A DNA stretch of 64,000 bases. Origin: Gammaproteobacteria bacterium (GTDB taxonomy: Bacteria > Pseudomonadota > Gammaproteobacteria > UBA4575). The notes beneath the pieces were generated by a model. It did not search any database. It was not told the DNA's origin and was given only the letters and a program-made list of their open reading frames with translations. Shown here piece by piece: positions 9,001 through 62,694 of the stretch. Each line of letters begins with the position of its first letter. Positions within the stretch are counted from its first letter, which is position 1. The position numbers were made by a program, and so were the translations under genes. Location: NCBI GenBank assembly GCA_965243395.1, contig CBDEUS010000002.1, forward strand, positions 1 to 64,000, written 5' to 3'.

Positions 9001-10404
9001 ATCACTAAAGTCTCACTCGCCGCATTCGCTAACGCGCCCACCGTCCACACGCCGGTGCCACTGTTATACGTTCCAACACTTGGTGTATCACTCACATAGG
9101 TGTAACCCGCCGGTAACTGATCCAACACCGCCACATTGGTCGCACCACTGGGACCGTTGTTGGTCACGGTGACCGTGAAGTTCACGTTCGCACCCACACT
9201 CGGCGTCGCGTTGTCCACCACCTTCGTTAAACTTAAGTCCGCACTCGCCACCGGTGTGGTCAGTGCATTGTCTTGATCATCTTCTGCAGGAACGTTGTTG
9301 TTCGGCGTACTGTCCGGATCGGCTTGGTCACTGGCACTGACTTGCGCGATGTTGTCATACGGTCCACTCGCGTTCACCGTCGCGGTGATCACTAAAGTCT
9401 CACTCGCCGCATTCGCTAACGCGCCCACCGTCCACACGCCGGTGCCACTGTTATACGTTCCAACACTTGGTGTATCACTCACATAGGTGTAACCCGCCGG
9501 TAACTGATCCAACACCGCCACATTGGTCGCACCACTGGGACCGTTGTTGGTCACGGTGACCGTGAAGTTCACGTTCGCACCCACACTCGGCGTCGCGTTG
9601 TCCACCACCTTCGTTAAACTTAAGTCCGCACTCGCCACCGGTGTGGTCAGTGCATTGTCTTGATCATCTTCTGCAGGAACGTTGTTGTTCGGCGTACTGT
9701 CCGGATCGGCTTGGTCACTGGCACTGACTTGCGCGATGTTGTCATACGGTCCACTCGCGTTCACCGTCGCGGTGATCACTAAAGTCTCACTCGCCGCATT
9801 CGCTAACGCGCCCACCGTCCACACGCCGGTGCCACTGTTATACGTTCCAACACTTGGTGTATCACTCACATAGGTGTAACCCGCCGGTAACTGATCCAAC
9901 ACCGCCACATTGGTCGCACCACTGGGACCGTTGTTGGTCACGGTGACCGTGAAGTTCACGTTCGCACCCACACTCGGCGTCGCGTTGTCCACCACCTTCG
10001 TTAAACTTAAGTCCGCACTCGCCACCGGTGTGGTCAGTGCATTGTCTTGATCATCTTCTGCAGGAACGTTGTTGTTCGGCGTACTGTCCGGATCGGCTTG
10101 GTCACTGGCACTGACTTGCGCGATGTTGTCATACGGTCCACTCGCGTTCACCGTCGCGGTGATCACTAAAGTCTCACTCGCCGCATTCGCTAACGCGCCC
10201 ACCGTCCACACGCCGGTGCCACTGTTATACGTTCCAACACTTGGTGTATCACTCACATAGGTGTAACCCGCCGGTAACTGATCCAACACCGCCACATTGG
10301 TCGCACCACTGGGACCGTTGTTGGTCACGGTGACCGTGAAGTTCACGTTCGCACCCACACTCGGCGTCGCGTTGTCCACCACCTTCGTTAAACTTAAGTC
10401 CGCA
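1..10404. repeat. Tandem array of 387-bp units, about 26.9 copies, continuing off the left edge
   Basis: The unit ggaacgttgttgttcggc...tcatcttctgca recurs every 387 nt, and identical shadow ORFs start at 7, 394, ... 10069. I saw no variant by eye. Identity breaks after ...aagtccgca at 10404. Unit GC counted at 219/387 (about 57%). Confidence 0.98.
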
Positions 10405-10628
10405 TTTGCTAATAGTGTGTTGCTATCTGATGCGGTATTGTTAGCTGGGGTTGGGTCACTGATTCCAGCGGGCGCGGTGACGGTGGCTGTGTTGACTAAA
10501 GGATTTGGAAATACAGCGGACGCTTGAAAGGAAAAAATGTACAGAAATATGAAAACAAAATAATTACGAAAACGTAAAAATTTACGATGTTCCCAACTCG
10601 ATTGTCGTTCCCTGATGAGAATTGACAC
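1..10628 (-). CDS. Giant secreted repetitive adhesin-like protein with tandem DUF11-type Ig-like domains (3'-partial, >3,540 aa)
   Basis: Manual translation gives a GTG start at 10628 after AAGGA and a signal peptide MSILIRERQSSWEHRKFLRFRNYFVFIFLYIFSFQASA|. The stop-free 129-aa repeat is ADLSLTKVVDNATPSVGANVNFTVTVTNNGPSGATNVAVLDQLPAGYTYVSDTPSVGTYNSGTGVWTVGALANAASETLVITATVNASGPYDNIAQVSASDQADPDSTPNNNVPAEDDQDNALTTPVAS, with DUF11 hallmarks ADLSLTK, N-x-GPS-x-A and DxLPAG. No stop codon lies inside the window. Confidence 0.93.
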   Translation of the reverse strand, partial: MSILIRERQSSWEHRKFLRFRNYFVFIFLYIFSFQASAVFPNPLVNTATVTAPAGISDPTPANNTASDSNTLLANADLSLTKVVDNATPSVGANVNFTVTVTNNGPSGATNVAVLDQLPAGYTYVSDTPSVGTYNSGTGVWTVGALANAASETLVITATVNASGPYDNIAQVSASDQADPDSTPNNNVPAEDDQDNALTTPVASADLSLTKVVDNATPSVGANVNFTVTVTNNGPSGATNVAVLDQLPAGYTYVSDTPSVGTYNSGTGVWTVGALANAASETLVITATVNASGPYDNIAQVSASDQADPDSTPNNNVPAEDDQDNALTTPVASADLSLTKVVDNATPSVGANVNFTVTVTNNGPSGATNVAVLDQLPAGYTYVSDTPSVGTYNSGTGVWTVGALANAASETLVITATVNASGPYDNIAQVSASDQADPDSTPNNNVPAEDDQDNALTTPVASADLSLTKVVDNATPSVGANVNFTVTVTNNGPSGATNVAVLDQLPAGYTYVSDTPSVGTYNSGTGVWTVGALANAASETLVITATVNASGPYDNIAQVSASDQADPDSTPNNNVPAEDDQDNALTTPVASADLSLTKVVDNATPSVGANVNFTVTVTNNGPSGATNVAVLDQLPAGYTYVSDTPSVGTYNSGTGVWTVGALANAASETLVITATVNASGPYDNIAQVSASDQADPDSTPNNNVPAEDDQDNALTTPVASADLSLTKVVDNATPSVGANVNFTVTVTNNGPSGATNVAVLDQLPAGYTYVSDTPSVGTYNSGTGVWTVGALANAASETLVITATVNASGPYDNIAQVSASDQADPDSTPNNNVPAEDDQDNALTTPVASADLSLTKVVDNATPSVGANVNFTVTVTNNGPSGATNVAVLDQLPAGYTYVSDTPSVGTYNSGTGVWTVGALANAASETLVITATVNASGPYDNIAQVSASDQADPDSTPNNNVPAEDDQDNALTTPVASADLSLTKVVDNATPSVGANVNFTVTVTNNGPSGATNVAVLDQLPAGYTYVSDTPSVGTYNSGTGVWTVGALANAASETLVITATVNASGPYDNIAQVSASDQADPDSTPNNNVPAEDDQDNALTTPVASADLSLTKVVDNATPSVGANVNFTVTVTNNGPSGATNVAVLDQLPAGYTYVSDTPSVGTYNSGTGVWTVGALANAASETLVITATVNASGPYDNIAQVSASDQADPDSTPNNNVPAEDDQDNALTTPVASADLSLTKVVDNATPSVGANVNFTVTVTNNGPSGATNVAVLDQLPAGYTYVSDTPSVGTYNSGTGVWTVGALANAASETLVITATVNASGPYDNIAQVSASDQADPDSTPNNNVPAEDDQDNALTTPVASADLSLTKVVDNATPSVGANVNFTVTVTNNGPSGATNVAVLDQLPAGYTYVSDTPSVGTYNSGTGVWTVGALANAASETLVITATVNASGPYDNIAQVSASDQADPDSTPNNNVPAEDDQDNALTTPVASADLSLTKVVDNATPSVGANVNFTVTVTNNGPSGATNVAVLDQLPAGYTYVSDTPSVGTYNSGTGVWTVGALANAASETLVITATVNASGPYDNIAQVSASDQADPDSTPNNNVPAEDDQDNALTTPVASADLSLTKVVDNATPSVGANVNFTVTVTNNGPSGATNVAVLDQLPAGYTYVSDTPSVGTYNSGTGVWTVGALANAASETLVITATVNASGPYDNIAQVSASDQADPDSTPNNNVPAEDDQDNALTTPVASADLSLTKVVDNATPSVGANVNFTVTVTNNGPSGATNVAVLDQLPAGYTYVSDTPSVGTYNSGTGVWTVGALANAASETLVITATVNASGPYDNIAQVSASDQADPDSTPNNNVPAEDDQDNALTTPVASADLSLTKVVDNATPSVGANVNFTVTVTNNGPSGATNVAVLDQLPAGYTYVSDTPSVGTYNSGTGVWTVGALANAASETLVITATVNASGPYDNIAQVSASDQADPDSTPNNNVPAEDDQDNALTTPVASADLSLTKVVDNATPSVGANVNFTVTVTNNGPSGATNVAVLDQLPAGYTYVSDTPSVGTYNSGTGVWTVGALANAASETLVITATVNASGPYDNIAQVSASDQADPDSTPNNNVPAEDDQDNALTTPVASADLSLTKVVDNATPSVGANVNFTVTVTNNGPSGATNVAVLDQLPAGYTYVSDTPSVGTYNSGTGVWTVGALANAASETLVITATVNASGPYDNIAQVSASDQADPDSTPNNNVPAEDDQDNALTTPVASADLSLTKVVDNATPSVGANVNFTVTVTNNGPSGATNVAVLDQLPAGYTYVSDTPSVGTYNSGTGVWTVGALANAASETLVITATVNASGPYDNIAQVSASDQADPDSTPNNNVPAEDDQDNALTTPVASADLSLTKVVDNATPSVGANVNFTVTVTNNGPSGATNVAVLDQLPAGYTYVSDTPSVGTYNSGTGVWTVGALANAASETLVITATVNASGPYDNIAQVSASDQADPDSTPNNNVPAEDDQDNALTTPVASADLSLTKVVDNATPSVGANVNFTVTVTNNGPSGATNVAVLDQLPAGYTYVSDTPSVGTYNSGTGVWTVGALANAASETLVITATVNASGPYDNIAQVSASDQADPDSTPNNNVPAEDDQDNALTTPVASADLSLTKVVDNATPSVGANVNFTVTVTNNGPSGATNVAVLDQLPAGYTYVSDTPSVGTYNSGTGVWTVGALANAASETLVITATVNASGPYDNIAQVSASDQADPDSTPNNNVPAEDDQDNALTTPVASADLSLTKVVDNATPSVGANVNFTVTVTNNGPSGATNVAVLDQLPAGYTYVSDTPSVGTYNSGTGVWTVGALANAASETLVITATVNASGPYDNIAQVSASDQADPDSTPNNNVPAEDDQDNALTTPVASADLSLTKVVDNATPSVGANVNFTVTVTNNGPSGATNVAVLDQLPAGYTYVSDTPSVGTYNSGTGVWTVGALANAASETLVITATVNASGPYDNIAQVSASDQADPDSTPNNNVPAEDDQDNALTTPVASADLSLTKVVDNATPSVGANVNFTVTVTNNGPSGATNVAVLDQLPAGYTYVSDTPSVGTYNSGTGVWTVGALANAASETLVITATVNASGPYDNIAQVSASDQADPDSTPNNNVPAEDDQDNALTTPVASADLSLTKVVDNATPSVGANVNFTVTVTNNGPSGATNVAVLDQLPAGYTYVSDTPSVGTYNSGTGVWTVGALANAASETLVITATVNASGPYDNIAQVSASDQADPDSTPNNNVPAEDDQDNALTTPVASADLSLTKVVDNATPSVGANVNFTVTVTNNGPSGATNVAVLDQLPAGYTYVSDTPSVGTYNSGTGVWTVGALANAASETLVITATVNASGPYDNIAQVSASDQADPDSTPNNNVPAEDDQDNALTTPVASADLSLTKVVDNATPSVGANVNFTVTVTNNGPSGATNVAVLDQLPAGYTYVSDTPSVGTYNSGTGVWTVGALANAASETLVITATVNASGPYDNIAQVSASDQADPDSTPNNNV

Positions 10629-50700: not shown

Positions 50701-50736
50701 GTATAAAAAAGCCTCTACTCAGAGGCTTTTTTATAC
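50701..50736. terminator. Intrinsic terminator
   Basis: Perfect 16-bp inverted repeat gtataaaaaagcctct-actc-agaggcttttttatac after the GMC gene. Confidence 0.92.
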
Positions 50737-51259
50737 CTTGTTAATAAATTTTATTAATAGAAAATATAAGATTTACGTGAATACCTGCAGTTTCAATCAT
50801 TAATGTTAATAGCTGAACAATAAACAAACTAAATACTGCTAAGACATCGAAAAGATATCACTTAAAAATTAGTGTTATTCGATATCCGAGAGTTAATGCT
50901 TTTAAATCAAGAGATTATTGACTATTTATGTCATAAATAAATATTTTCAGCTTCATAAATAGATATGAATTCGCTTATGAAGAACATTTAAAACTATTAT
51001 CAAGAGGCATCTACTTATCATGCATAATAAATATGTGTTATCGGTCTATGCCCTTCTTAAAATAATTTTATTCAAGAACACCGTATTGCCGATAAGTTTT
51101 TTAAACCCAAGATATAAGTAGATTGGCGGTTTAAACACAATAAGAAAATCGATAGATTAGAAGTGCAGATAAACTGCACCACTTAAATTATAAAAGCAAA
51201 AAACGATTAGCATACGCCACGTAAGTTAATTGGGACGTGCTATAGACGAGGGGTTATCA

Positions 51260-51799
51260 ATGAAAGCTAATTATTATCTTTCTCCTACTTTAAAAAGTAC
51301 GCATCAAATTTCAGATGATTTACATGAGGTTGGTATAAATGATTGGTTTATACATGTCATCAGTAAAGATGAATCTGGACTCAATAAAGAACATGTACAT
51401 TCTAGTAATTACTTAGAAACACTAGATGTTCTTCGTAATGGTGGTATTGGAGGTTTGATTGGTTTCATCATTGGTGTATTCGCGGCAGGCGCACTTATGT
51501 TTTTTAAACCCTTTGGACCTAATATGCCTGAATACGTGTACCTGATTGTGATTGTATTATTTACTTTATTTGGGATTTGGGAAGGCGGTTTAGCCGGTGT
51601 AGCGTGTGAGAATAAAAAACTCGCTAAGTTTCATGATGAATTAGAAGAAGGGAAATATTTAATCCTTATCTATACTGGTAAAAACCAGGAGGATGTAGTT
51701 AACGAAATGATGGTTCGCAAACATCCTGAAGCGCAATTAGTTGCAACGGATACTCAGTACTTCAACCCCTTCAGCCAGTTAAAAAGATTAGAAAGCTAA
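51260..51799 (+). CDS. Two-TM glycine-zipper-like membrane protein (DUF1269-like)
   Basis: GAGGGG RBS before ATG 51260; GGIGGLIGFIIG and FGIWEGGLAG helices; first gene of the oxidase cluster. Confidence 0.7.
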   Translation: MKANYYLSPTLKSTHQISDDLHEVGINDWFIHVISKDESGLNKEHVHSSNYLETLDVLRNGGIGGLIGFIIGVFAAGALMFFKPFGPNMPEYVYLIVIVLFTLFGIWEGGLAGVACENKKLAKFHDELEEGKYLILIYTGKNQEDVVNEMMVRKHPEAQLVATDTQYFNPFSQLKRLES

Positions 51800-51841: not shown

Positions 51842-52735
51842 GTGAACGCAACCTTAACAGCAACTAGAAATGTTTTAAGTGATTTTGTTGAGATCTGCAA
51901 ACCTCGTATTGCATTATTAGTTTTGGTAACCACTTTTTCAGGAATGTGGTTAGCAAGTAGTGCCAACTTATCCTTTGATCTTATCTTCTTAACTTTACTC
52001 GGAACTGGACTGGCTTCGGCGGCAAGTGGAGCATTTAATAATTATGTTGATCGCGAAGTAGATAAACTTATGGCGCGTACGCGCACTCGTGCCCTACCCT
52101 GCTCACGTCTACACCCTCAACAAGCTTTATGGTTGGGCGTAATGTTAAGTCTGTGGTCATTCGCAATTCTTTTCTATTTAGTCAATCCACTGACTGCTTT
52201 TTTAGTTCAAGCAACTACATTTTTTTATGTTGTGATCTACACCATGTGGTTGAAACGCACGTCTCCACTGTGTACTGAAGTTGGTGGCGTTGCCGGTGCG
52301 ATGCCACCCGTAATTGGCTGGGCTGCAGTAACCAATGAAATTGCATGGCCCGCACTAGTGATGTTTTTAATAATGTTTATTTGGCAACCTCCACATTTTT
52401 GGGCATTAGCATTATTGCGAAAAGATGAGTATCGAAAAGCAAATTTACCGATGTTGCCCGTAGTTAGCGGTGATCGCGCCACTAAAATTCGAATGTTGCT
52501 TTATACCATCGCCTTAGTGCCAGCAAGCTTAGCGATGTACTACTTAGATCTAGTTGGACCTACTTATTTAGTTTTAGCGTTAATACTAGGCATTGCATAT
52601 TTGGTTTTAACTATAGACTTTGCACGCAAACCGATTACACATAAAAGCACTCGAAAATTATTTGGGTTTTCGATTTTGTACTTATTAGGTTTATTCACAT
52701 TAATTTTTATTGATTGCCAATGTTATGTTGGATAG
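51842..52735 (+). CDS. cyoE: Protoheme IX farnesyltransferase (heme O synthase), copy 1
   Basis: KPRI, N...DREVD.LM.RT..R.LP, YT.WLKR, GA.PP..GW, WQPPHF. Confidence 0.95.
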   Translation: MNATLTATRNVLSDFVEICKPRIALLVLVTTFSGMWLASSANLSFDLIFLTLLGTGLASAASGAFNNYVDREVDKLMARTRTRALPCSRLHPQQALWLGVMLSLWSFAILFYLVNPLTAFLVQATTFFYVVIYTMWLKRTSPLCTEVGGVAGAMPPVIGWAAVTNEIAWPALVMFLIMFIWQPPHFWALALLRKDEYRKANLPMLPVVSGDRATKIRMLLYTIALVPASLAMYYLDLVGPTYLVLALILGIAYLVLTIDFARKPITHKSTRKLFGFSILYLLGLFTLIFIDCQCYVG

Positions 52736-52792: not shown

Positions 52793-54151
52793 ATGGCTGT
52801 TGCCATTATTTTAATATTACTTGTTGTCGGATCTGTAATTTTCCATTTTATGAGCCCGTGGTATTTCACGGAACTTGCTTCTAATTGGGGTGCAATTGAC
52901 ACCACAGTGACGATCACTTTTGTTGTGTGCGGAATTGTATTCGTGTTAGCCAATTTATTTATGGCGTATTGCATAATTAAGTTTCGCAATAAGAGTAAAG
53001 ATCAACGCGCGGCCTACGAACCAGAAAATAAGAAACTTGAAGCATGGTTAACTGTGATCACAACAATAGGTGTAGTCGCGATGCTTGCTCCGGGCCTTGT
53101 GGTTTGGGCAAAATTTGTATCCCCGCCTGTTGATGCCAACATTGTTGAAGCAGTAGGACAACAATGGCAATGGAGTTTTCGCTTACCCGGCAAGGATCAG
53201 CGCTTAGGCACAGTGGATGCCAAAAAAATAAGCATCGATAATCCATTTGGAATGAATGCAGATGATCCATATGGACAGGACGACATTTTAATTCCAGGAA
53301 ATGAACTACACATACCGCTCAACCAAGCCGTTAAATTTAACCTACGTTCCAAAGACGTTTTACATAATTTCACCGTTCCACAATTTCGCGTAAAAATGGA
53401 TTTGGTTCCTGGCATGGTGACATGGCAGTGGCTAACACCAACACGTGTAGGTGAATTTGAAATACTTTGTGAAGAACTTTGCGGCATTGGTCACCACACA
53501 ATGCGTGGCAAAGTGGTTGTTGACGAAGAAAAAGATTATCAAGCATGGTTATCGCAACAGAAAACCTATGCCCAATTCCTAGCTGAAAAAGAAATTCATG
53601 CCGATGTCGCTGCGGGCAAAGCACTTTATCAAGTTTGTGCTTCGTGCCATGGGCTAGAAGGTGAAGGTAATCCTGCTCTCAATTCTCCTAAGATCAGTGG
53701 TCAAGAGACTTGGTACCTTAAAAGACAGTTAGGGTATTTCAAACACGGGATTCGTGGCAGTGATCCTAATGATACCTATGGTGCACAAATGGCACCCATG
53801 GCAGCAACGCTTGTTGATGATGCTGCAATGAACAACATAGCGGCCTACATACAAACTCTTCCCGACAACCCCGCACCTCAAACTATTAAAGGTGATGCTG
53901 AAAAAGGCAAAAGACTTTATGTCACTTGTGGTAAATGTCATGGCAAGAGTGCTGAAGGTAGATGGGCCGTTAATGCACCGCGGATAAAGGGCATGAGCGA
54001 TTGGTATTTGCTCACTCAACTTCAAAACTTTAAACAAGGATTACGTGGTGCACATCCTGGCGATGTCACGGGTAGGCAGATGGAATCTATGGTGCTGAGT
54101 TTAAGTGATGAAAAAATGCATGATGTGATTGCATACATTAATTCTTTATAA
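52793..54151 (+). CDS. coxB: Cytochrome c oxidase subunit II with two fused c-type heme domains
   Basis: Three hydrophobic helices; QWQW; CuA ligands DVLH...CEELCGIGHHTM; CASCH and CGKCH. Confidence 0.95.
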   Translation: MAVAIILILLVVGSVIFHFMSPWYFTELASNWGAIDTTVTITFVVCGIVFVLANLFMAYCIIKFRNKSKDQRAAYEPENKKLEAWLTVITTIGVVAMLAPGLVVWAKFVSPPVDANIVEAVGQQWQWSFRLPGKDQRLGTVDAKKISIDNPFGMNADDPYGQDDILIPGNELHIPLNQAVKFNLRSKDVLHNFTVPQFRVKMDLVPGMVTWQWLTPTRVGEFEILCEELCGIGHHTMRGKVVVDEEKDYQAWLSQQKTYAQFLAEKEIHADVAAGKALYQVCASCHGLEGEGNPALNSPKISGQETWYLKRQLGYFKHGIRGSDPNDTYGAQMAPMAATLVDDAAMNNIAAYIQTLPDNPAPQTIKGDAEKGKRLYVTCGKCHGKSAEGRWAVNAPRIKGMSDWYLLTQLQNFKQGLRGAHPGDVTGRQMESMVLSLSDEKMHDVIAYINSL

Positions 54152-54195: not shown

Positions 54196-55941
54196 ATGGC
54201 ACACGTTGCACTCGCCGACGAAGGTCAAGCGCTTCATCATCCTAAAACGTGGATTGGAACCTACGTATGGAGCCAAGATCATAAAGTAATAGGCATTCAA
54301 TACATATTAACTGCAACTGCAGTAGGTGTAGTCGCGCTCGTGCTATCCGGCATGATGCGTTTACAACTGGGTTTCCCAGGGGTATTTGATTTAATTCAAC
54401 CGGATGAATATTACCAAGCCGTGACTATGCACGGCATGATCATGATTGTATTCATGCTTACGGCATTTTTCCTGGGTGGTTTTGGCAACATACTGGTGCC
54501 GTTAATGTGCGGAGCTCGGGATATGGCCTTTCCGTATATGAATATGCTCAGCTATTGGGTGTATTTATTATCTGTAATTGTTGTATGTGCAAGTTTCTTT
54601 GTACCCGAAGGTCCTACTGGAGCAGGTTGGACACTCTACCCGCCTCAAGCTGTCACGGAAGGTACAGCCGGTGCCGACTGGGGAATTGTTTGTATGACGG
54701 TGTCTTTGGGTTTATTCGTTGTCGCGTTCACTATGGGCGGTTTGAACTACGTGACGACTGCATTTCAGGCTCGTACACGCGGTATGACTCTTATGCGTAT
54801 GCCTTTGTCAGTATGGGGCATCATCATGGCAACAATTTTAGGTCTGCTTGCATTTCCTGCTTTGTTAGTAAGCGTAATTATGATGACGCTAGACAAAATG
54901 TTAGGTACAAGCTTTTTTATCCCCGCAATTTCTTCCTTAGGTGAAAACCTAAGTCATGAAGGTGGTAGCCCGATTTTATTCCAACACTTGTTCTGGTTCT
55001 TTGGGCATCCCGAAGTGTACATTGTTGCATTACCTGCTTTCGGTATCGTTTCTGACTTGGTCAGTACTCATGCGCGTAAAAATATATTTGGTTTCCGCAT
55101 GATGGTATGGGCTTTAGTTGCGATTGGTGGTTTAAGTTTCATTGTATGGGCACACCATATGTACGTCAGTGGTATGAACCCGTATTTCGGATTTTTCTTT
55201 GCCACAACAACATTAATTATTGCGGTTCCGACGGCGATCAAAGTCTATAACTGGGTGCTGACGTTGTGGCAAGGCAACATTCATTTGAATGTGCCGATGT
55301 TATTTGCCATTGGCTTTATCTTTACCTTTATTCATGGCGGCATCACGGGTTTATTCCTCGGTAATGTGGTTGTAGACGTTCCTCTGTCTGATACCTATTT
55401 TGTAGTGGGACACTTTCATATGGTCATGGGAGTATCACCGTTCTTAGTTGTATTTGGTGGAATTTATCACTGGTTTCCGTTGCTCACTGGACGCATGTTG
55501 AATGACACCATGGGCAAGATTCACTTCTGGATGACCTTCTTAGGCACCTATGCCATTTACTTACCAATGCACTACATTGGCATTTTAGGTGTACCACGTC
55601 GTTACTTTGCCAATGGTTCGACAGAATTCTTACCTGAATCTGTTCAGACAGCGAATGTGAGCATTACGATTGCTGCATTAGTTGTAGGTACGGCGCAATT
55701 CTTATTCTTGGTTAACATCTTCTGGAGCATCTTCAAAGGCAAGCGAGCAGAAAAGAACCCTTGGCGTGCCACCTCACTGGAATGGCAAACACCGGACATG
55801 CCTCCTAAACATGGTAACTGGGGACCAGAACTTCCTGTAGTCCATCGTTGGGCATATTCCTACAGTGTTCCAGGCGCACGTGAAGACTTCATTCCGCAAA
55901 CGGAAGAACCAAGTGAAAATACTAAAGGTGATGTGCACTAG
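54196..55941 (+). CDS. coxA: Heme-copper oxidase subunit I (A1 type, CoxN-like)
   Basis: DHKVIG (D channel), TMHG, GHPEVY, WAHHM, PTAIK (K channel), HFH, PRRY. Confidence 0.97.
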   Translation: MAHVALADEGQALHHPKTWIGTYVWSQDHKVIGIQYILTATAVGVVALVLSGMMRLQLGFPGVFDLIQPDEYYQAVTMHGMIMIVFMLTAFFLGGFGNILVPLMCGARDMAFPYMNMLSYWVYLLSVIVVCASFFVPEGPTGAGWTLYPPQAVTEGTAGADWGIVCMTVSLGLFVVAFTMGGLNYVTTAFQARTRGMTLMRMPLSVWGIIMATILGLLAFPALLVSVIMMTLDKMLGTSFFIPAISSLGENLSHEGGSPILFQHLFWFFGHPEVYIVALPAFGIVSDLVSTHARKNIFGFRMMVWALVAIGGLSFIVWAHHMYVSGMNPYFGFFFATTTLIIAVPTAIKVYNWVLTLWQGNIHLNVPMLFAIGFIFTFIHGGITGLFLGNVVVDVPLSDTYFVVGHFHMVMGVSPFLVVFGGIYHWFPLLTGRMLNDTMGKIHFWMTFLGTYAIYLPMHYIGILGVPRRYFANGSTEFLPESVQTANVSITIAALVVGTAQFLFLVNIFWSIFKGKRAEKNPWRATSLEWQTPDMPPKHGNWGPELPVVHRWAYSYSVPGAREDFIPQTEEPSENTKGDVH

Positions 55942-55943
55942 TC

Positions 55944-56609
55944 ATGACCGCAACACTCATCTTTCTAGCAGTAATAATGGGCGGAGTCGTAATATGGCTC
56001 ATTCGCCAAACGATCAATGTGCAACCCTGGGCTGAAGAAGGGCCAATAGGTCAACATCATGCGGGAGGCGCATTTTCTATTCCTGCTGCAAAAATTGGTT
56101 TAGTTGTATTTCTTGCGGTAGCAAGCTCGTTATTTTCATTATTTATCAGTGCTTACTTTCAACGCATGGAGTATGGAGACTGGACACCATTACCTGAACC
56201 AGGTTTGTTGTGGATAAACACTGGCATGCTTGTTCTGGCCAGTGTGTTCTTTCAACGCGCACGTAATGCTGCAATTAAAAGTTTAGCTAGAAATGTGAAA
56301 TCGAATTTAATGATTGCAGGTTTATTTACTTTTGCATTTATTGCTAGCCAGCTGTGGGTCTGGAAAGGACTACACGATGCAGGCTTTTTCTTAACCAGCA
56401 ATCCTGCCAATTCGTTCTTTTATGTGCTTACCGCCATTCATGCTTTACATATCTTGGGTGGTTTGTGGGTATGGAGTAAATCGGTTTTCAAACTTCAAAC
56501 TAATGCTGAAGTTCACAAAGTTCGTATGAGTGTCGAACTATGCGCAATTTACTGGCACTTTTTATTACTAGTTTGGTTAGTGCTATTTGCACTACTGTTA
56601 TCAACCTAA
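55944..56609 (+). CDS. Oxidase subunit III-like (CoxO-like)
   Basis: F..LTAIHALH, YWHFL..VW. Confidence 0.88.
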   Translation: MTATLIFLAVIMGGVVIWLIRQTINVQPWAEEGPIGQHHAGGAFSIPAAKIGLVVFLAVASSLFSLFISAYFQRMEYGDWTPLPEPGLLWINTGMLVLASVFFQRARNAAIKSLARNVKSNLMIAGLFTFAFIASQLWVWKGLHDAGFFLTSNPANSFFYVLTAIHALHILGGLWVWSKSVFKLQTNAEVHKVRMSVELCAIYWHFLLLVWLVLFALLLST

Positions 56610-56632: not shown

Positions 56633-57307
56633 ATGTCAAGTTCAGGACAAGTCACAGATCAAGGTGTAGTGAATGATCTGGTAGACGATTGGGCAGAAGA
56701 AAAAGAAGTCTTTAAGGTTCATTGGGGCAAAGCCATGATGTGGATCTTTCTGTTAAGTGACACATTTATTTTTACTTCATTCCTTACCGGTTATATGAAA
56801 GTTCGTGCGAGCTCTACGATCCCATGGCCAAATGCAAGCGAGATCTTTGCGTTGAGTTTTGGTGGAGACCCTATTCCATTAATCTTGATTGCGATCATGA
56901 CATTTGTACTTATTACCAGTAGTGGCACGATGGCGCTTGCGGTGAACTATGGTTACCGTCGAGACCGTGGGAAAACAGCAACGCTATTATTTATAACTGC
57001 CGCCTTCGGACTTTTATTTGTTGGCATGCAAGCATTTGAGTGGACCAAGCTTATTGTTGATGAAGGCGTACGTCCCTGGGGTAATCCATTTGGTGCACCA
57101 CAGTTTGGTGCCTGCTTTTTTATGATTACGGGATTTCACGGGGCTCATGTATCAGGTGGTGTCATCTACCTAACCTACGTTGCCATTGGCGTGCTCAATG
57201 GTCGCTATGAGAAAAAAGGCTATGACATTGTTGAGATATGTGGCCTGTATTGGCACTTCGTGGATTTGGTTTGGGTATTTATTTTTGCATTCTTTTATCT
57301 TTGGTGA
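56633..57307 (+). CDS. Oxidase subunit III-like (CoxP-like)
   Basis: MWIFLLSD, TGFHGAHV, YWHFVDLVW. Confidence 0.9.
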   Translation: MSSSGQVTDQGVVNDLVDDWAEEKEVFKVHWGKAMMWIFLLSDTFIFTSFLTGYMKVRASSTIPWPNASEIFALSFGGDPIPLILIAIMTFVLITSSGTMALAVNYGYRRDRGKTATLLFITAAFGLLFVGMQAFEWTKLIVDEGVRPWGNPFGAPQFGACFFMITGFHGAHVSGGVIYLTYVAIGVLNGRYEKKGYDIVEICGLYWHFVDLVWVFIFAFFYLW

Positions 57308-57316
57308 GGTATAACC

Positions 57317-57682
57317 ATGTCAGCATCAAAATCAGGACACCAAGAACATCCTCTTAGCATTTATCTTTGGATTTGGGTCTTATTGTTCGTGCTTAGCACA
57401 TTTTCTTATATGGTAGATTATTACCAGCTACAAGGTGCCTTGCGCTGGAACCTCATCATCATCTTTATGATGCTAAAAGCAGGTTTCATTGTTGCAATCT
57501 TCATGCATATGACCTGGGAGCGCATCACCTTGATCACCGCTATCTTGGTACCTCCGCTATGCCTGCTGGTTTTAATAGTGTTGATGTCAATTGAAGGTCA
57601 ATACACACATAAGTCTAGAGCTACTTTCTTTGGCCTCGAAGAAGCGCCCGTTGTTGAACATCATGGCGAGAAGAGTCATTAA
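57317..57682 (+). CDS. Oxidase subunit IV family (CoxQ-like)
   Basis: Three TMs, KA..IVAIFMHM.WE. Confidence 0.88.
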   Translation: MSASKSGHQEHPLSIYLWIWVLLFVLSTFSYMVDYYQLQGALRWNLIIIFMMLKAGFIVAIFMHMTWERITLITAILVPPLCLLVLIVLMSIEGQYTHKSRATFFGLEEAPVVEHHGEKSH

Positions 57683-57762
57683 TTGCGGACTCATATTTTT
57701 TATTCAACTTAATTACGTAACGGTGTATTCTTAATTGATAATTCATTCATAATTAGAAATCT

Positions 57763-58371
57763 ATAATTCGCCCTTTCCGTAATATTCTCATTTGCTACAT
57801 CTGTAGCATCTTTATTTGCACAAATGCATTTGCGCATGGGGGCGTGTTTCTTGAAGATGATATTTGTGTTATTCAAATTGATTTCTTTCAAGCACATTTC
57901 ACAATCTATCAACCTCAAATCACTCAGCATGAGGAATTTTGTGAGGATATTCCTGAAATTGGAGATACAATTTTTGTAATGGAATATCTACATGATGGCT
58001 TAAGAGAAATGCCCATAGATTTTCGCATTATCAAAGACACACAAAAGTTAGGGCGTTTTGCAAAATTAGAAGACGTTGAGAAAATCGAAAATCTCGATTC
58101 ACATACTGTTCTTTATCAACCCCCGCAAACCGGACCTGATGGCATCTACTTAGCCAAGTACGACTTCTTGGAAGAAGGCTATTACATTGGTATTGTAAGT
58201 GCTGAACGATTGAGCGATGGAATGGTCTACACGGCTGTATTCCCTTTTCAAGTTGGTAGCAATAGTTGGGGATATATACCTTTAATAATTATTATTGCTA
58301 TCTTTTTACAACTTAATTACTGGCTAATGAGCGGAGGTTTTGCGCGTTTACGCAAAATATTTTCATCATGA
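57763..58371 (+). CDS. PmoD/AmoD-like periplasmic, membrane-anchored putative copper protein (start uncertain)
   Basis: In-frame upstream extension IIRPFRNILICYICSIFICTNAFA|HGGV; mature motifs EDDIC, HFTIYQP, FCEDIP..G.T, LR.MP...RIIKD; C-terminal TM helix. Confidence 0.72.
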   Translation: MIRPFRNILICYICSIFICTNAFAHGGVFLEDDICVIQIDFFQAHFTIYQPQITQHEEFCEDIPEIGDTIFVMEYLHDGLREMPIDFRIIKDTQKLGRFAKLEDVEKIENLDSHTVLYQPPQTGPDGIYLAKYDFLEEGYYIGIVSAERLSDGMVYTAVFPFQVGSNSWGYIPLIIIIAIFLQLNYWLMSGGFARLRKIFSS

Positions 58372-58763
58372 AATTTGCAAATATCATAGTTCTATTATTC
58401 GTAAGTTTTTCTGTTTTGGCTAATACCAATATAGAAGCTACCAAGGAATCAAATAATCAACTATTTAAAGTTAGTTTTATAAGCAAAGCAGATCCAATCA
58501 AAATTAATAAAATACATACATGGATTATTCATATCGAAGACATAAATGGTAACAATATCGAAGATGCAACTATTACTGTAGATGGTGGTATGCCGGCACA
58601 TGACCATGGGCTCCCTACACAACCACAAATAACAAAGCATTTAGGTGATGGCCGCTATTTACTCGAAGGTATGAAATTCCATATGTTGGGATACTGGACC
58701 GTAACCATATCTATTTCCCATGGCAACCTAAGCGATGAAGTAACTTTTGAATTAAATTTTTAA
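58368..58763 (+). CDS. YtkA-like (FixH/YtkA family) periplasmic protein
   Basis: Signal peptide SVLA|; DGGMPAHDHG.P, G.Y..EG.KFHM.G.W; overlaps the upstream stop (ATGA). Confidence 0.82.
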   Translation: MKFANIIVLLFVSFSVLANTNIEATKESNNQLFKVSFISKADPIKINKIHTWIIHIEDINGNNIEDATITVDGGMPAHDHGLPTQPQITKHLGDGRYLLEGMKFHMLGYWTVTISISHGNLSDEVTFELNF

Positions 58764-58772
58764 ACTTGATTC

Positions 58773-60056
58773 ATGAGTTTTATAAACCTTCCCAGAATCC
58801 AATACATCATTTTTGCTCTAGTTATTTTATTAGTTGCTTATTGGCTAGTATCAAATAAAAATTCTAAAATCGATTGGTCTGCAGAAGAAATAAAAGTTTT
58901 AAATACTTTATCTTTAGACAGCATAGATAAACTACCTAAAAGTCACAGCAATATCGTTGCTGATAATCCTGCTGCTGCAGAATTAGGTTGGTTGCTCTTT
59001 TTTGACGAGCGCTTGAGTCATAACGGCAAAGTTTCCTGTGCAACCTGCCATATTCCGGAACTTAAATTCACTGACGGCTTAAAAACTGCAGCGGGTGCCC
59101 AAGCAGGTTTACGCAATACCAATACACTAATTGGTGTTGCATACAGTCCTTGGCAATTTTGGGATGGACGCAAAGATAGCCTGTGGTCACAAGCATTATC
59201 ACCTTTGGAAAATGAATTGGAGCATGCAGGCACGCGAACACAATTTATTCATATCATTTCCAATGATGAAAATTACAAAAAAAAGTATCAACATTTGTTT
59301 GGACCGTTGCCTGATTTTTCAGACCCAACTCGTTTCCCCAAGTCTGCTGGCCCTATTAACAATAAAAATATTAATCAAGCTTGGCAAAAAATGGCAAGTG
59401 AAGATAAAAATTTGGTTACCAATGTATTTGTGAATATCGCGAAAGTAATTGAAGCATATGAACGACTACTGCTTCCAGGTCGAAGTAGATTTGACGATTA
59501 TGTACAGGGTGTAGTTGAAAATAATACTGAAAAATTAACTGCACTCTCCAAAGATGAAGCTCGAGGACTAAAATTATTCATTGGCAAAGCACAATGTATT
59601 AATTGTCATAACGGGCCTTTGTTTACCAATAATGAATTTCATAATACCGCTATACTTTCCCCTACTCGTCAACTGCCGAGCATAGGTAGAGTTGAAGGTG
59701 TCCGTAAAGTATTTGATGATCCGTTTAACTGTCTAGGACAACATAGTGATGCAGAAAAAAATCAATGCGCTGACTTACGCTTTGCAAAATCAGGGGACGA
59801 ATTAATTGGCGCCCACAAAGTGCCCACGCTAAGAAATGTCGTGGAAACAGCCCCCTATATGTATGCTGGACAATTAGAAACGCTTGAAGAAGTAATTGAA
59901 CATTACGATAGCGCACCGCTGGCAATGATTGGCCATAATGAAAGTAAACCACTTGAACTAAGTAACAAAGAAAAAAAACAACTCGAGCTATTTTTATCTA
60001 GCTTATCTAGCCCATTAGCCACAGATCCTAAGTGGCTTAAAAACCCTCATTTATGA
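58773..60056 (+). CDS. Diheme cytochrome c peroxidase / MauG / MbnH superfamily protein
   Basis: LG..LFFD.RLS, CATCH, QFWDGR, CINCH, KVPTLRNV..TAPYM; N-terminal TM anchor. Confidence 0.9.
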   Translation: MSFINLPRIQYIIFALVILLVAYWLVSNKNSKIDWSAEEIKVLNTLSLDSIDKLPKSHSNIVADNPAAAELGWLLFFDERLSHNGKVSCATCHIPELKFTDGLKTAAGAQAGLRNTNTLIGVAYSPWQFWDGRKDSLWSQALSPLENELEHAGTRTQFIHIISNDENYKKKYQHLFGPLPDFSDPTRFPKSAGPINNKNINQAWQKMASEDKNLVTNVFVNIAKVIEAYERLLLPGRSRFDDYVQGVVENNTEKLTALSKDEARGLKLFIGKAQCINCHNGPLFTNNEFHNTAILSPTRQLPSIGRVEGVRKVFDDPFNCLGQHSDAEKNQCADLRFAKSGDELIGAHKVPTLRNVVETAPYMYAGQLETLEEVIEHYDSAPLAMIGHNESKPLELSNKEKKQLELFLSSLSSPLATDPKWLKNPHL

Positions 60057-60215
60057 AAAGAAAGCACTAAGCTATTGCTAAAGAAATAGTCATAGGGCTC
60101 AAACAATCTATCCTGTTAAAGATATAATTTTGTTCAACAATTTCTTACTATTAAATGAGTAATATCACATAGATTAATATTCATACTATCCCTCCTTTAT
60201 TGCGGAGCTTATAAA

Positions 60216-61112
60216 TTGAACGCCACTATTACTGCGGTTCGCACACAAGCAAGTGACTTTTTTGAACTGTGTAAACCACGAATTGCTTTACTGGTCTTAC
60301 TTACCACTTTTACGGGTATGTGGTTAGCTGGCGGCGGTTCTGTACCACTTGAACTAGTTATTTATACTTTACTTGGAACCGGTCTTGCCTCTGCTTCGAG
60401 CGGCGCATTAAATAACTATGTAGATCGTGAAGTAGATAAGCTGATGGCACGCACACGTACACGCGCCTTACCTTCAGCTAGGCTTTTCCCACAACAAGCG
60501 CTATGGCTGGGAGGATTATTAAGCATTTCATCTTTTGTAATCCTGTTTTATTTAGTTAACCCACTAACAGCTTATTTGGCATTGGGCACAACATTTTTCT
60601 ATGTAGTGATCTATACCATCTGGCTGAAACGTATCACGCCATTGTGCACAGAAATCGGCGGTGTAGCAGGTGCACTTCCTCCTGTGATTGGTTGGGCGGC
60701 AGTCACCAACGATATAAGTTGGCAAGCCATGGTAATGTTTATCATCATGTTTATATGGCAGCCGCCACACTTTTGGGCTTTAGCATTATTGCGGGCTGAA
60801 GAATATCGACGTGCGAAATTACCTATGCTGCCAGTCGTAAGTGGTATGGAAATTACTAAATTTCGAATGCTGTTATATACCATCGTACTCATTCCTATAA
60901 GTACAATGATGTTTTGGCTTAACTTAACAGGGCCTGTCTATTTAACTGCAGCATTAGTACTTGGCGCAATTTACTTATTTATCACTATTGATTTTGCGCG
61001 CAAACCAATCACCCACCAAAGCACTAAACGATTGTTTGGCTATTCAATAATATATTTATGCGGCTTATTTGTATTTATTTTTGCAGATTGTCAATGTAAT
61101 TCTGCGCTGTAA
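60216..61112 (+). CDS. cyoE: Protoheme IX farnesyltransferase (heme O synthase), copy 2
   Basis: Same motifs as 51842-52735; aligns to it without gaps; TTG start after GGAG. Confidence 0.95.
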   Translation: MNATITAVRTQASDFFELCKPRIALLVLLTTFTGMWLAGGGSVPLELVIYTLLGTGLASASSGALNNYVDREVDKLMARTRTRALPSARLFPQQALWLGGLLSISSFVILFYLVNPLTAYLALGTTFFYVVIYTIWLKRITPLCTEIGGVAGALPPVIGWAAVTNDISWQAMVMFIIMFIWQPPHFWALALLRAEEYRRAKLPMLPVVSGMEITKFRMLLYTIVLIPISTMMFWLNLTGPVYLTAALVLGAIYLFITIDFARKPITHQSTKRLFGYSIIYLCGLFVFIFADCQCNSAL

Positions 61113-61253: not shown

Positions 61254-61628
61254 ATGAAAATAGTGCTTTGCATAGTCATCGTATTTTTACTCGCTTCTGA
61301 AAACGCATACTCTTCAGTAAAAACCATTACCTGTAGCTATGATACTTTTGCATCTGTGCAAAAAGTTGATAGAACTACTGAAGTAATGAAGCTAACCTTC
61401 ACCGTGAATACTGAAACCAGTGAGGCTAAAATAATTCGCAAAAATGGAATTACTGAAGTTGATTTGTATCCAACTGGGGGCGGATTTACGTTTATTGAAG
61501 TTAATGAGCGAGGCAACGTGCTTACCACAACCGTAGACGTCCATGGAAAATCAGCACACAGCCGTAACACTATTTTAGATAGTGAACTGGTGCCAAGTCA
61601 GTTTTATGGAACATGCGATTACAAATAG
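61254..61628 (+). CDS. Secreted hypothetical protein
   Basis: Signal peptide; Cys near both mature termini (TC..., G-T-C); no family recognised. Confidence 0.65.
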   Translation: MKIVLCIVIVFLLASENAYSSVKTITCSYDTFASVQKVDRTTEVMKLTFTVNTETSEAKIIRKNGITEVDLYPTGGGFTFIEVNERGNVLTTTVDVHGKSAHSRNTILDSELVPSQFYGTCDYK

Positions 61629-61645
61629 TACATTTAACTTTCTTC

Positions 61646-62398
61646 TTAGCCCTGATCATATAATTCACACGGACTGCGTAGCTCATCCGGAATATTGGGT
61701 GGACATATTCCACATACCTCGTTACCTGGTACCGCAAAATCAATTTTTTTAGGATAAGGTAAATCCAAGTCATTCATAATTTTTACAAACTGCTCTTTAG
61801 GCATACCATTTCCTAAACGTGGATTACGCGCTTTTTCCTGTGCAATGCTGCTTACATGACGACCGGCATAATCATGTGCTGGATATACCAAGGTTTCTCC
61901 AGGCAAGGAAAATAATTTTTCTTGAATGCTTTCATATAATTGACCCGCATCGCCTGATTGAAAGTCAGTGCGACCACATGCATCAATTAATAATGCATCT
62001 CCGGTAAATACCATTTGCTGAGACCCTTGTTTGATTAAATACGCATAATGATGGTCAGTATGCCCGGGTGTAAACAAGGGATGTAATTGTATTGAGCCTA
62101 TTTTAAATACCTGGCCTTCTTCGGCGTATAAATCTGCGCAAGGAAGTTGTGTTTGTTTTGGATAAACAATTTCACATTGAGTTATTGCCTTAAGCTTAGT
62201 TGCACTGGTTAGATGATCAGCGTGTATATGTGTATCGATTGTATAATTTAACTTTAAACCCAATGTCTGAAGCACGTCCAAATCACGTTCCACTGTTTCC
62301 AAAACAGGGTCAATTAAAGCGACCTGACCCTGTTCTGGGCAAGCAATCAAATACGTATATGTTGAAGAACTACTCTCAAATAACTGACGAAAAATCAT
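61646..62398 (-). CDS. Persulfide dioxygenase (ETHE1-like MBL fold)
   Basis: IFRQLF..SSTYTYL, THIHADH, TPGHT, GDALLI..CGRTDFQ, YPAHDY, NPRL. Confidence 0.9.
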   Translation of the reverse strand: MIFRQLFESSSSTYTYLIACPEQGQVALIDPVLETVERDLDVLQTLGLKLNYTIDTHIHADHLTSATKLKAITQCEIVYPKQTQLPCADLYAEEGQVFKIGSIQLHPLFTPGHTDHHYAYLIKQGSQQMVFTGDALLIDACGRTDFQSGDAGQLYESIQEKLFSLPGETLVYPAHDYAGRHVSSIAQEKARNPRLGNGMPKEQFVKIMNDLDLPYPKKIDFAVPGNEVCGICPPNIPDELRSPCELYDQG

Positions 62399-62406
62399 TT
62401 TAAATT

Positions 62407-62694
62407 TTATCCATGTGCGATTGGTTTATCTGTAAAAAGAAAATCTTTTAACTCATTATCAAATGTTGGATCTTGCCTACGAATCCATTCTAATACCATA
62501 GCTGCATGCTCTTTCTCCTCGTCACGATTATGGGCGAGAATAGCTTTTAGGTCTTTATCCTTACATGCATCCACGCGTTGGTTATACCAATCAACAGCCT
62601 CAAGCTCTTCCATCAAGGAAGTAATCGCTCTATGCATATCTCGCGTTTCATCCGATAATTCATCTATTGGTTCATGATAACCTTCATTTGCCAT
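62407..62694 (-). CDS. Encapsulin-associated-type ferritin-like protein (Flp/EncFtn)
   Basis: HRA..SL.EELEAVDWY.QR, HNRDEEKEHAAM.LEWIRR. Confidence 0.92.
   Translation of the reverse strand: MANEGYHEPIDELSDETRDMHRAITSLMEELEAVDWYNQRVDACKDKDLKAILAHNRDEEKEHAAMVLEWIRRQDPTFDNELKDFLFTDKPIAHG

Follow-up and report, generated by a model that had tools for sequence, protein, structure and literature searches.

What does a gene of the PmoD/AmoD family, whose products have no settled function, do behind a haem-copper oxidase operon, and in a genome without a match to pmoA or pmoB? The stretch analysed here, called the window below, comprises the first 64,000 nucleotides of contig CBDEUS010000002.1 (contig 2) of the gammaproteobacterial assembly GCA_965243395.1, a genome of 2.58 Mb in two contigs that is rated 100% complete. 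Three genes on its plus strand encode a PmoD/AmoD-family protein (57763-58371), a YtkA/CtaK-like periplasmic protein (58368-58763) and a membrane-anchored dihaem enzyme of the MauG/MbnH type (58773-60056), and are referred to here as the trio. They follow coxIV directly, with a 4-nt overlap between the first two genes and a 9-nt gap between the last two; these coordinates, the spacing and the position, which were given in a preliminary description of the sequence, all hold, and in a terminator scan, which used a consensus only, no strong signal was seen to separate coxIV from the trio. With moderate confidence, we read the trio as a module that faces the periplasm, acquires and inserts copper, and was recruited to an A-type, cytochrome-c-fused (caa3-like) oxidase operon, and it probably supplies copper to that oxidase in marine bacteria that are often without the usual chaperones.

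The first product matched no Pfam or NCBIfam model. In a phmmer search of PDB sequences, PmoD was the sole family matched (6cpd_A, E = 3.6e-15, residues 33-165), and the soluble domain as modelled by AlphaFold2 (pLDDT 92.8, pTM 0.87), from an alignment of 118 rows that left out L055 for its stop codon, retrieved 6cpd_B with Foldseek (E = 2.9e-12, TM-scores 0.74/0.84), the next matches having E-values of 4e-4 or worse. By sequence and by fold, the protein is therefore a true member of the PmoD/AmoD family, as had been proposed from peptide features (AFA followed by HGGV, EDDIC-x7-QAH-FTIYQP, FCEDIP, RIIKD and a C-terminal hydrophobic helix) that are all present in the translation. At 202 amino acids (aa), it has what Fisher et al. 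(2018) used to define the family, namely a signal-like N-terminus, which ends in AFA directly before a His, two Cys residues and a C-terminal helix (near residues 171-190; helix and signal peptide were read from the translation). The signal peptide, the two invariant Cys, the C-terminal helix, the length of about 200 aa and the fold are shared with PmoD/AmoD/AmoE (6cpd). The protein differs from these in being encoded in a genome without a CuMMO (copper membrane monooxygenase), behind a haem-copper oxidase operon and together with YtkA-like and MauG-like genes.

The putative copper-binding residues were compared with those of known PmoD proteins. C35 and C60 align with C41 and C65 of 6cpd, and a His is found at the position of H51. 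The pattern conserved in the family is C-x9-H-xn-C together with the first His of the mature protein; His25 (the first mature residue after AxA), Gly26, Gly27, Asp33, Cys35, His45, Phe46, Cys60 and Pro64 were conserved in every context group, including the copies adjacent to pmoB. The ligand set of the CuA-forming members, Cx7MxHxnC, was not found, Q43 occupying the position of the Met. The preliminary description had read this stretch as Cx7QxH, and that motif is present, but the Gln is no conserved ligand: the position is occupied by K, R, S, Q, T or E among the homologues, and Q43 as a ligand replacing the CuA Met was rejected for this reason. The motif class of the protein is Cx9HxnC, which Fisher et al. 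describe as binding copper without forming CuA (PMC6189053). In the published PmoD constructs, the N-terminus was extended by two residues from the vector (PMC6189053), so that a site using the free N-terminal His presumably could not form in them.

The second product passed PF13115 (48.4 bits against a gathering cut-off of 25.9), which bears out its assignment to YtkA. H50, W52, M75, H78, H80, H105, M106 and W110 were invariant in 25 orthologues. The fold closest to its model (pLDDT 88.9) was that of Helicobacter CrdA, a copper-resistance protein whose structure was solved with silver (E = 4.4e-7, TMt 0.78-0.80), and FetP was a weaker fold match. In Bacillus, CtaK and the YtkA domain of YcnJ support CuA assembly of the caa3 oxidase according to genetic evidence (PMC9145763, PMC13344008), and our protein resembles these in the PF13115 domain, the conserved His and Met residues and the genetic tie to a caa3-type oxidase. 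CtaK of B. subtilis is reported to be a lipoprotein (PMC9145763), whereas the N-terminal signal region of our protein, MKFANIIVLLFVSFSVLANT, contains no lipobox Cys; the YtkA-like protein is therefore probably soluble in the periplasm. Its relatives differ from CtaK also in being always accompanied by a MauG-like gene and in being often fused to a PmoD domain. A role in CuA assembly would be analogous to that of CtaK, its basis here being the linkage of the gene to the caa3-like operon.

The third product has an N-terminal hydrophobic anchor and two CxxCH motifs, CATCH at C89-H93 and CINCH at C275-H279. C89, C92, H93, C275, C278, H279 and Y378 were invariant in 27 MauG-like sequences. Y378 aligned with a Tyr of MbnH (6e1c) and with a Met of the peroxidases 1iqc, 3o5c, 2c1u and 3hq8, a position which we take to be that of the axial ligand of the second haem. 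As the invariant Tyr378 replaces the Met of peroxidases, the alignment places the enzyme in the protein-oxidising branch and not among the ordinary peroxidases, in agreement with its initial designation as a MauG/MbnH type. The best NCBIfam models were MbnH (TIGR04039, E = 1.2e-43) and MauG (TIGR03791, E = 6.7e-38). The scores, 149.5 bits against 362.85 for MbnH and 130.6 against 443.85 for MauG, were far below the equivalog cut-offs, and the enzyme therefore forms a separate subfamily.

The usual occurrence of PmoD/AmoD in a genome encoding a CuMMO does not apply here. Neither pmoA (PF02461) nor pmoB (PF04744) was matched in the complete source genome, and the PF04744 search worked, finding pmoB in 13 of the 400 genomes sampled from the class. 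In the same sample, a PmoD-family profile matched 18 genomes, including all 13 with pmoB; the other five were the source genome, G150, G361, G204 and, weakly, G244. Three unpublished genomes (G039, G141 and G308) are counted in these figures. In ten further carrier genomes, whose completeness was not reported, pmoB was not found. The earlier proposal that PmoD acts here outside a monooxygenase context thus agrees with the genome content. Fisher et al. presented the family as specific to oxidisers of methane and ammonia, 98.5% of the 860 sequences being from species with a CuMMO, and stated that no earlier family existed for PmoD (PMC6189053); a 2026 review calls PmoD/AmoD 'unique to AOB and methanotrophs' (PMC13058606).

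The size of the family outside CuMMO genomes and its genomic contexts were then surveyed. There were 1268 near-length homologues of the PmoD-like protein among 1311 candidates, with 526 clusters at 50% identity, 58 at E <= 1e-30. A 17-sequence alignment of PmoD-like proteins matched 299 species genomes, and the neighbourhoods of the best 80 loci, which by record title belong to gammaproteobacterial metagenome-assembled genomes (MAGs) including Pseudohongiella, Woeseiaceae, OM182 and Thiotrichales, were sorted by tblastn with the proteins of the window. The cox operon followed by the PmoD-like, YtkA-like and MauG-like genes was found in the same order in 20 of the 80 loci, and because of this recurrence the gene arrangement is far beyond chance. 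Contig ends cut three cox-linked loci beyond these 20; in two loci the contig ended after the cox operon and the PmoD-like gene (L012, L055), and in another two after the YtkA-like gene. A MauG-like gene never occurred without a YtkA-like gene (33 of 33 loci).

We reconstructed a quick maximum likelihood tree from 91 PmoD-like sequences, in which the PmoD-like proteins linked to cox genes formed one clade (24 rows; Shimodaira-Hasegawa-like approximate likelihood ratio test, SH-aLRT, 96), as did those found with the trio only (13 rows, SH-aLRT 93). All 81 rows without a CuMMO grouped together (SH-aLRT 98), apart from the CuMMO-linked rows, and this group lies next to the gammaproteobacterial pmoCAB-pmoD clusters that also carry a multicopper oxidase (MCO) gene.

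A second conserved unit seems to be formed by the PmoD-like gene and an MCO. In 13 of the 80 loci (including L025, L039, L068, L084 and L085), the PmoD-like gene was followed by an MCO of 557-620 aa and a small MCO-like protein (about 230 aa), the assignment resting on Pfam for four loci and on tblastn for the rest; one more locus (L028) combined this unit with a convergent cox operon. In the pmoB-carrying genomes, the PmoD homologue was located directly 3' of pmoB, and in four pmoCAB genomes (G103, G230, G011 and G286; L092-L095) a 559-aa MCO again came after the PmoD-like gene, followed as before by the small MCO-like protein.

Several observations weigh against a module dedicated to the oxidase. 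In 13 of the 80 loci, the YtkA-like and MauG-like genes were present with no coxI in reach (one of these, L013, is cut by a contig end inside cox3). The 13 MCO-paired loci and a further 29, in which the PmoD-like gene had none of these partners, indicate that the PmoD part is not specific to oxidases; in the five partnerless loci examined by Pfam or ORF layout (L038, L043, L047, L063 and L074), genes for a short-chain dehydrogenase/reductase and a TonB-dependent receptor adjoin it. The locus L016 (1769-8548) has the flanks of the window, with a GMC oxidoreductase gene, the small membrane protein gene, the trio, ctaB2 and the gene for a small secreted protein, and it lacks ctaB1, coxII, coxI, both cox3 and coxIV while the trio and ctaB2 remain. 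The tree, moreover, has SH-aLRT support only, without bootstrap values, and is midpoint-rooted for drawing. The idea of a dedicated copper module for the oxidase, put forward in the preliminary description, is thus supported in part, by the conserved synteny and not by the trio loci without cox genes or by the PmoD-like genes paired with MCOs.

These same loci are the basis of the best-surviving alternative, which we nevertheless consider unlikely: that the trio serves the whole cell as a general module for the uptake or homeostasis of copper in the periplasm, like MbnP/MbnH with its TonB-dependent transporter, and that its place beside the oxidase reflects convenient co-expression in one lineage, with no dedicated hand-off. 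The 13 loci without cox genes in reach and the state of L016 speak for it, as do the ties of PmoD-like genes to CuMMO, MCO and cox genes alike. Furthermore, among 12 trio-only loci examined, in which the PmoD and YtkA parts were mostly encoded by one fused gene, three (L040, L062 and L080) had a TonB-dependent receptor gene 3' of the MauG-like gene on the same strand, and six (L040, L069, L070, L071, L080 and L087) had, ahead of the fused gene, a divergent gene whose small ZIP-like membrane product measures about 200 aa. However, the cox-linked clade is well supported and its gene order and close spacing are strict in 20 loci, and in nine of the 20 genomes no other recognisable CuA or CuB factor was found (see below), leaving the trio as the operon-encoded copper candidate. 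The two readings also overlap, since a general module could still supply the oxidase. The occurrence of the trio without oxidase genes, sometimes beside TonB-dependent receptor genes, is the reason why we describe it as an acquisition and delivery module and not as an oxidase-only factor.

The preliminary description had further noted that no pmo or sco gene is present in the window and had suggested that the trio may replace the usual chaperones. Indeed, Sco, Cox11, pmoA and pmoB gave no match inside the window, but the source genome contains two strong Sco genes with several weaker ones and PCuAC, and its contig 2 carries at 562-574 kb a canonical aa3 operon (coxII-coxI-cox11-coxIII-surf1-(Sco-like)-ctaA). 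Replacement of the chaperones by the trio was accordingly rejected for the source genome, where Sco, PCuAC and Cox11 are present elsewhere; it is plausible for nine of the 20 relatives with the full cox and trio arrangement, in which we took a census of copper factors. Cox11 was found in five of the 20, and these are precisely the genomes that have a second COX1, of the canonical kind (E about 1e-160; in G412, the copy next to Cox11 is cut by a contig end). Caa3_CtaG was found in none of the 20, and the control was positive in Bacillus. PCuAC was found in 11. Sco was matched in all 20, strongly in 11 and by a single weak match (E = 1e-14 to 1e-17) in the other nine. Cox11, Caa3_CtaG, PCuAC and a strong Sco were all not found in the same nine genomes (G402, G414-G417, G420, G423, G425 and G426), of which five are single-chromosome records by title. 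None of these nine has an A-type oxidase other than the window-type COX1, and a single further match, cbb3-like, occurs in four of them.

Because Cox11, Caa3_CtaG, PCuAC and a canonical Sco were not found there, no copper-handling machinery other than the trio can be recognised as linked to the oxidase in these nine genomes, and this is the strongest argument for the chaperone-replacement idea, although it does not apply to the source genome. Two points count against reading more into it: the completeness of the 20 genomes was not reported, so that 'not found' does not equal 'absent', and the source genome and 11 of the 20 relatives keep Sco and PCuAC, so that the trio is not always needed as a substitute. 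The canonical route, with Sco and PCuAC for CuA and Cox11 or Caa3_CtaG for CuB, presumably has the same task and employs unrelated families, and the presence of Cox11 follows that of the canonical aa3 operon (5 of 5), not that of the window-type oxidase. Bacillus CtaK, too, differs in that it works with Sco, whereas a canonical Sco was not found in nine of the 20 relatives. Haem A synthase was found in 19 of the 20, including eight of the nine factor-poor genomes (G415 was negative); the possibility that the window-type oxidase does without haem A was rejected, since CtaA is present in these 19 relatives and in the source genome.

The weak Sco-like gene belongs, in the five genomes examined, to another conserved cluster. 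In the source genome, positions 654-666 kb of contig 1 (L106) contain genes for Sco, SBP56 (methanethiol-oxidase-like, MtoX), a Sco-like protein, a MauG-like protein and two thioredoxin-like proteins. The part from SBP56 to thioredoxin was kept in all five streamlined, factor-poor relatives examined (L108-L112), where its Sco-like gene is the only Sco-family gene; the strong Sco gene was not kept. Clusters of mtoX, SCO1 and mauG and SCO1-MauG fusions were described by Eyice et al. (PMC5739008). The trio resembles these mtoX-SCO1/senC-mauG clusters in that a periplasmic copper chaperone and a MauG-like enzyme are encoded beside a copper enzyme and in the occurrence of chaperone-MauG fusions; it differs in having a YtkA-like chaperone instead of Sco, an added PmoD-family protein and a membrane oxidase as the client.

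Fusions link all three components of the trio. The YtkA motif was found behind the PmoD domain in 12 of 270 homologues, and 11 representatives of 331-582 aa have a PmoD-like domain, a membrane helix and a YtkA-like domain with a GGMPxHxHG motif. Conversely, among the longer relatives of the YtkA-like protein, 26 of 27 had a PmoD-like domain in front (purpose-built HMMs). Where the PmoD-YtkA fusions have a name at NCBI, it is 'FixH family protein'. The source genome itself encodes a 521-aa YtkA-MauG fusion (contig 1, 864001-865566, minus strand; L105:4004-5566), in which a YtkA-like domain (GGMPSHGHGLPSEP; hhalign probability 99.7, E = 3e-26) is joined to a MauG-like domain (PF03150, E = 1.7e-34). 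Genes for a rhodanese, a DUF6969 protein, a sulphur-transport protein and a class V aminotransferase adjoin it, and in view of the rhodanese and sulphur-transport genes its client is possibly sulphur-related.

We also predicted the complex of the MauG-like enzyme (residues 60-427) with the YtkA-like protein (residues 28-131), which scored 0.53 against 0.00 for the best control; the runs agreed in at least 97% of the contacts, and the partner pLDDT was at least 79. In the calibration, 116 of 157 solved complexes reached the mark, as did 2 of 215 mismatched pairs, and passes at or below 0.60 are weak. The predicted complex is thus a weak pass and gives weak support to our reading of the trio, and its weakness is to be counted against that reading.

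From these observations we infer that copper is bound, in which direction it is transferred, which protein the MauG-like enzyme targets and that the oxidase is the recipient, as follows. The YtkA-like protein would be a soluble His/Met copper carrier, like CtaK of Bacillus. The PmoD-like protein, tethered by its C-terminal helix, would bind copper via His25, Asp33, Cys35, His45 and Cys60 and exchange it directly with the YtkA-like protein. The MauG-type enzyme, anchored by its N-terminal helix, would oxidise a protein partner, most likely the YtkA-like protein. The effect would be either the formation or activation of a copper site, in the manner of MbnH acting on MbnP, or control over the redox state of Cys or Cu. 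The module would then hand copper to the CuA and/or CuB site of the neighbouring oxidase. MbnH makes the kynurenine copper ligand of MbnP from a Trp (PMC11951088). The similarities of the trio to MbnH-MbnP are a dihaem enzyme with the aligned Tyr beside the gene of a small periplasmic copper-type protein, the TonB-dependent receptor genes that adjoin some trio-only loci, and the two invariant Trp of the YtkA-like partner; the differences are the scores below the MbnH and MauG equivalog cut-offs and a partner that is YtkA-like and not MbnP.

A bolder extension, to which we give little credence, would cast the PmoD-family proteins as insertases of general use, tethered to the membrane, that load copper into membrane or periplasmic enzymes (pMMO/AMO, multicopper oxidases and haem-copper oxidases), with His25, Asp33, Cys35, His45 and Cys60 as the site; together with a MauG-matured YtkA-like carrier containing a protein-derived copper ligand, they would form a third, self-sufficient route to CuA and CuB, and in streamlined marine Gammaproteobacteria this route would take the place of Sco, PCuAC and Cox11.

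The target of the MauG-like enzyme could also be the oxidase itself, at a residue in one of its subunits I and II, or else the PmoD-like protein, in which case the two small proteins would serve for docking or as electron-relay partners. Enzymes of the MauG family do act on separate substrate proteins (PMC11951088), and one residue of the PmoD-like protein might mark a trio-specific site: His56 (window 57928-57930) was found in 92% of the PmoD-like proteins encoded with YtkA-like and MauG-like genes (38 rows) and in 0% of those with an MCO or no partner (45 rows). Glu/Asp68 and Asp126 showed a similar, weaker split, and His56 is a candidate for a trio-specific contact or ligand. We nevertheless regard such a target as improbable, given that the MauG-like and YtkA-like genes always co-occurred, even without an oxidase gene near, that the two are fused in a paralogue of the source genome, and that the predicted complex of the two passed, if weakly.

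The notion that the three proteins are redox accessories and not copper suppliers, the PmoD-like cupredoxin carrying electrons to the oxidase and the dihaem protein removing H2O2 as a peroxidase, could appeal to the cupredoxin fold of PmoD, to the CuA-type electron-transfer role proposed for operon PmoDs (PMC6189053, PMC13058606) and to the bacterial peroxidase 1iqc, which the dihaem protein matches best among the PDB sequences (E = 5.6e-29), but it is very hard to reconcile with the absence of the CuA ligand Met at a variable position, with the invariant Tyr that, as in MbnH, stands in the place of the axial Met of peroxidases, and with a YtkA-like partner from a copper-carrier family.

The arrangement itself is already in print as supplementary data. 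Supplementary file 3 of Fisher et al. lists homologues from species without a CuMMO, among them Pseudohongiella and a Woeseiaceae bin (326 aa, annotated as YtkA-like), and a gammaproteobacterial MAG with coxII (452 aa), coxI, two cox3, coxIV, the PmoD homologue, a YtkA-like protein and a cytochrome c peroxidase (PMC6189053). The PmoD row of that MAG gives the motif Cx9HxnC, 'species contains CuMMO' as 0 and 'neighbourhood Cu genes' as none; in a second genome of the file coxI is at -3, and the table also tracks a conserved 'H1' position (PMC6189053). In literature searches, we found no publication joining PmoD with YtkA, and the titles and abstract openings retrieved for PmoD with cytochrome c oxidase, and for PmoD/AmoD with multicopper oxidase and Gammaproteobacteria, did not describe the system. 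As far as these searches show, the raw arrangement has thus appeared as uninterpreted supplementary data, with no description or interpretation. New here are how widely the family occurs beyond CuMMO genomes, its three alternative contexts, the fusions, the MauG-type assignment and the missing chaperones in nine of the 20 relatives.

The family is abundant in bacteria without a copper monooxygenase and is attached to three copper enzymes, which shifts the question from the role of PmoD for pMMO to its role for copper enzymes generally, and the oxidase system should be easier to study than pMMO. An oxidase for which Cox11, Caa3_CtaG, PCuAC and a canonical Sco were not detectable in nine of the 20 relatives points to an undescribed route of copper assembly; a MauG-type enzyme in such a route would, if true, be a new use of protein-derived cofactor chemistry.

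According to the open reading frames (ORFs) and Pfam, the plus strand from 50.7 to 61.7 kb forms a single tightly packed cluster around the trio. A terminator-like hairpin with a 16-bp stem (50701-50736, plus strand) closes the upstream GMC-oxidoreductase gene, so that the transcription unit of the oxidase probably extends no further in the 5' direction. The first gene of the cluster (51230-51799), kept in near relatives according to tblastn synteny, encodes a small membrane protein with a weak likeness to DUF1269 (E = 0.011, below the cut-off). It is followed by the first copy of ctaB (51842-52735; haem O synthase of the UbiA family, PF01040, E = 1.2e-64) and by the gene for oxidase subunit II (52793-54151; COX2, E = 3.8e-18), which has two fused cytochrome c domains (Cytochrom_C, 2 stretches) and, as read from the translation, the canonical CuA motif CEELCGIGHHTM. 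Subunit I (54196-55941; PF00115, E = 2.7e-137) is A-type and contains the GHPEVY motif. Two COX3-like subunits, a (55944-56609; PF00510, E = 5.5e-8) and b (56633-57307; PF00510, E = 3.4e-17), are 25% identical to each other, and subunit IV is encoded by coxIV (57317-57682; PF03626, E = 4.4e-12). With COX1, COX2 including the CuA motif, COX3, COX4 and haem O synthase, the cluster has the components of an A-type haem-copper oxidase operon. Downstream of the trio are a second ctaB copy assigned by Pfam (haem O synthase, 60216-61112), which is kept 3' of the trio in the nearest relatives, and a gene for a small secreted protein of no known family (61254-61628), which is likewise kept downstream in them. 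The ctaB copies are 73% identical and flank the oxidase and trio genes; the haem A synthase gene (ctaA) of this genome sits in the other, canonical aa3 operon.

The start of the PmoD-like gene is unusual. From its opening at 57757 up to the signal peptide, the frame has no ATG, GTG or TTG; the first canonical start, a GTG at 57844, falls past the predicted cleavage site of the signal peptide. A start at 57763 therefore implies ATA or ATT as the initiation codon. The closest relative (L010) has the same ATA ATT CGC right after the upstream stop. A canonical start at least 17 codons upstream of the mature His was not found in the window or in six loci (L010, L012, L013, L014, L015 and L023) and was present in the other 74. 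The simplest reading of these sequences suggests initiation at ATA or ATT, as a lineage-specific and probably weak initiation codon.

The region from 57300 to 60100 was identical in contigs of X1 and X2, which come from one sample, possibly the source, and parts of it were matched at lower identity by contigs from two other studies. On the minus strand beyond the cluster, positions 61646-62694 encode a protein of the metallo-beta-lactamase fold (250 aa) and an EncFtn-like protein (95 aa, E = 2.5e-45). At the other end of the window, an open-ended ORF of more than 3500 aa (3-10628, minus strand) contains DUF11 repeats, eight stretches of which were matched within the first 1000 residues scanned (E = 5.7e-289); its GC content is 0.566 with constant skew, that of the rest of the window being about 0.38.

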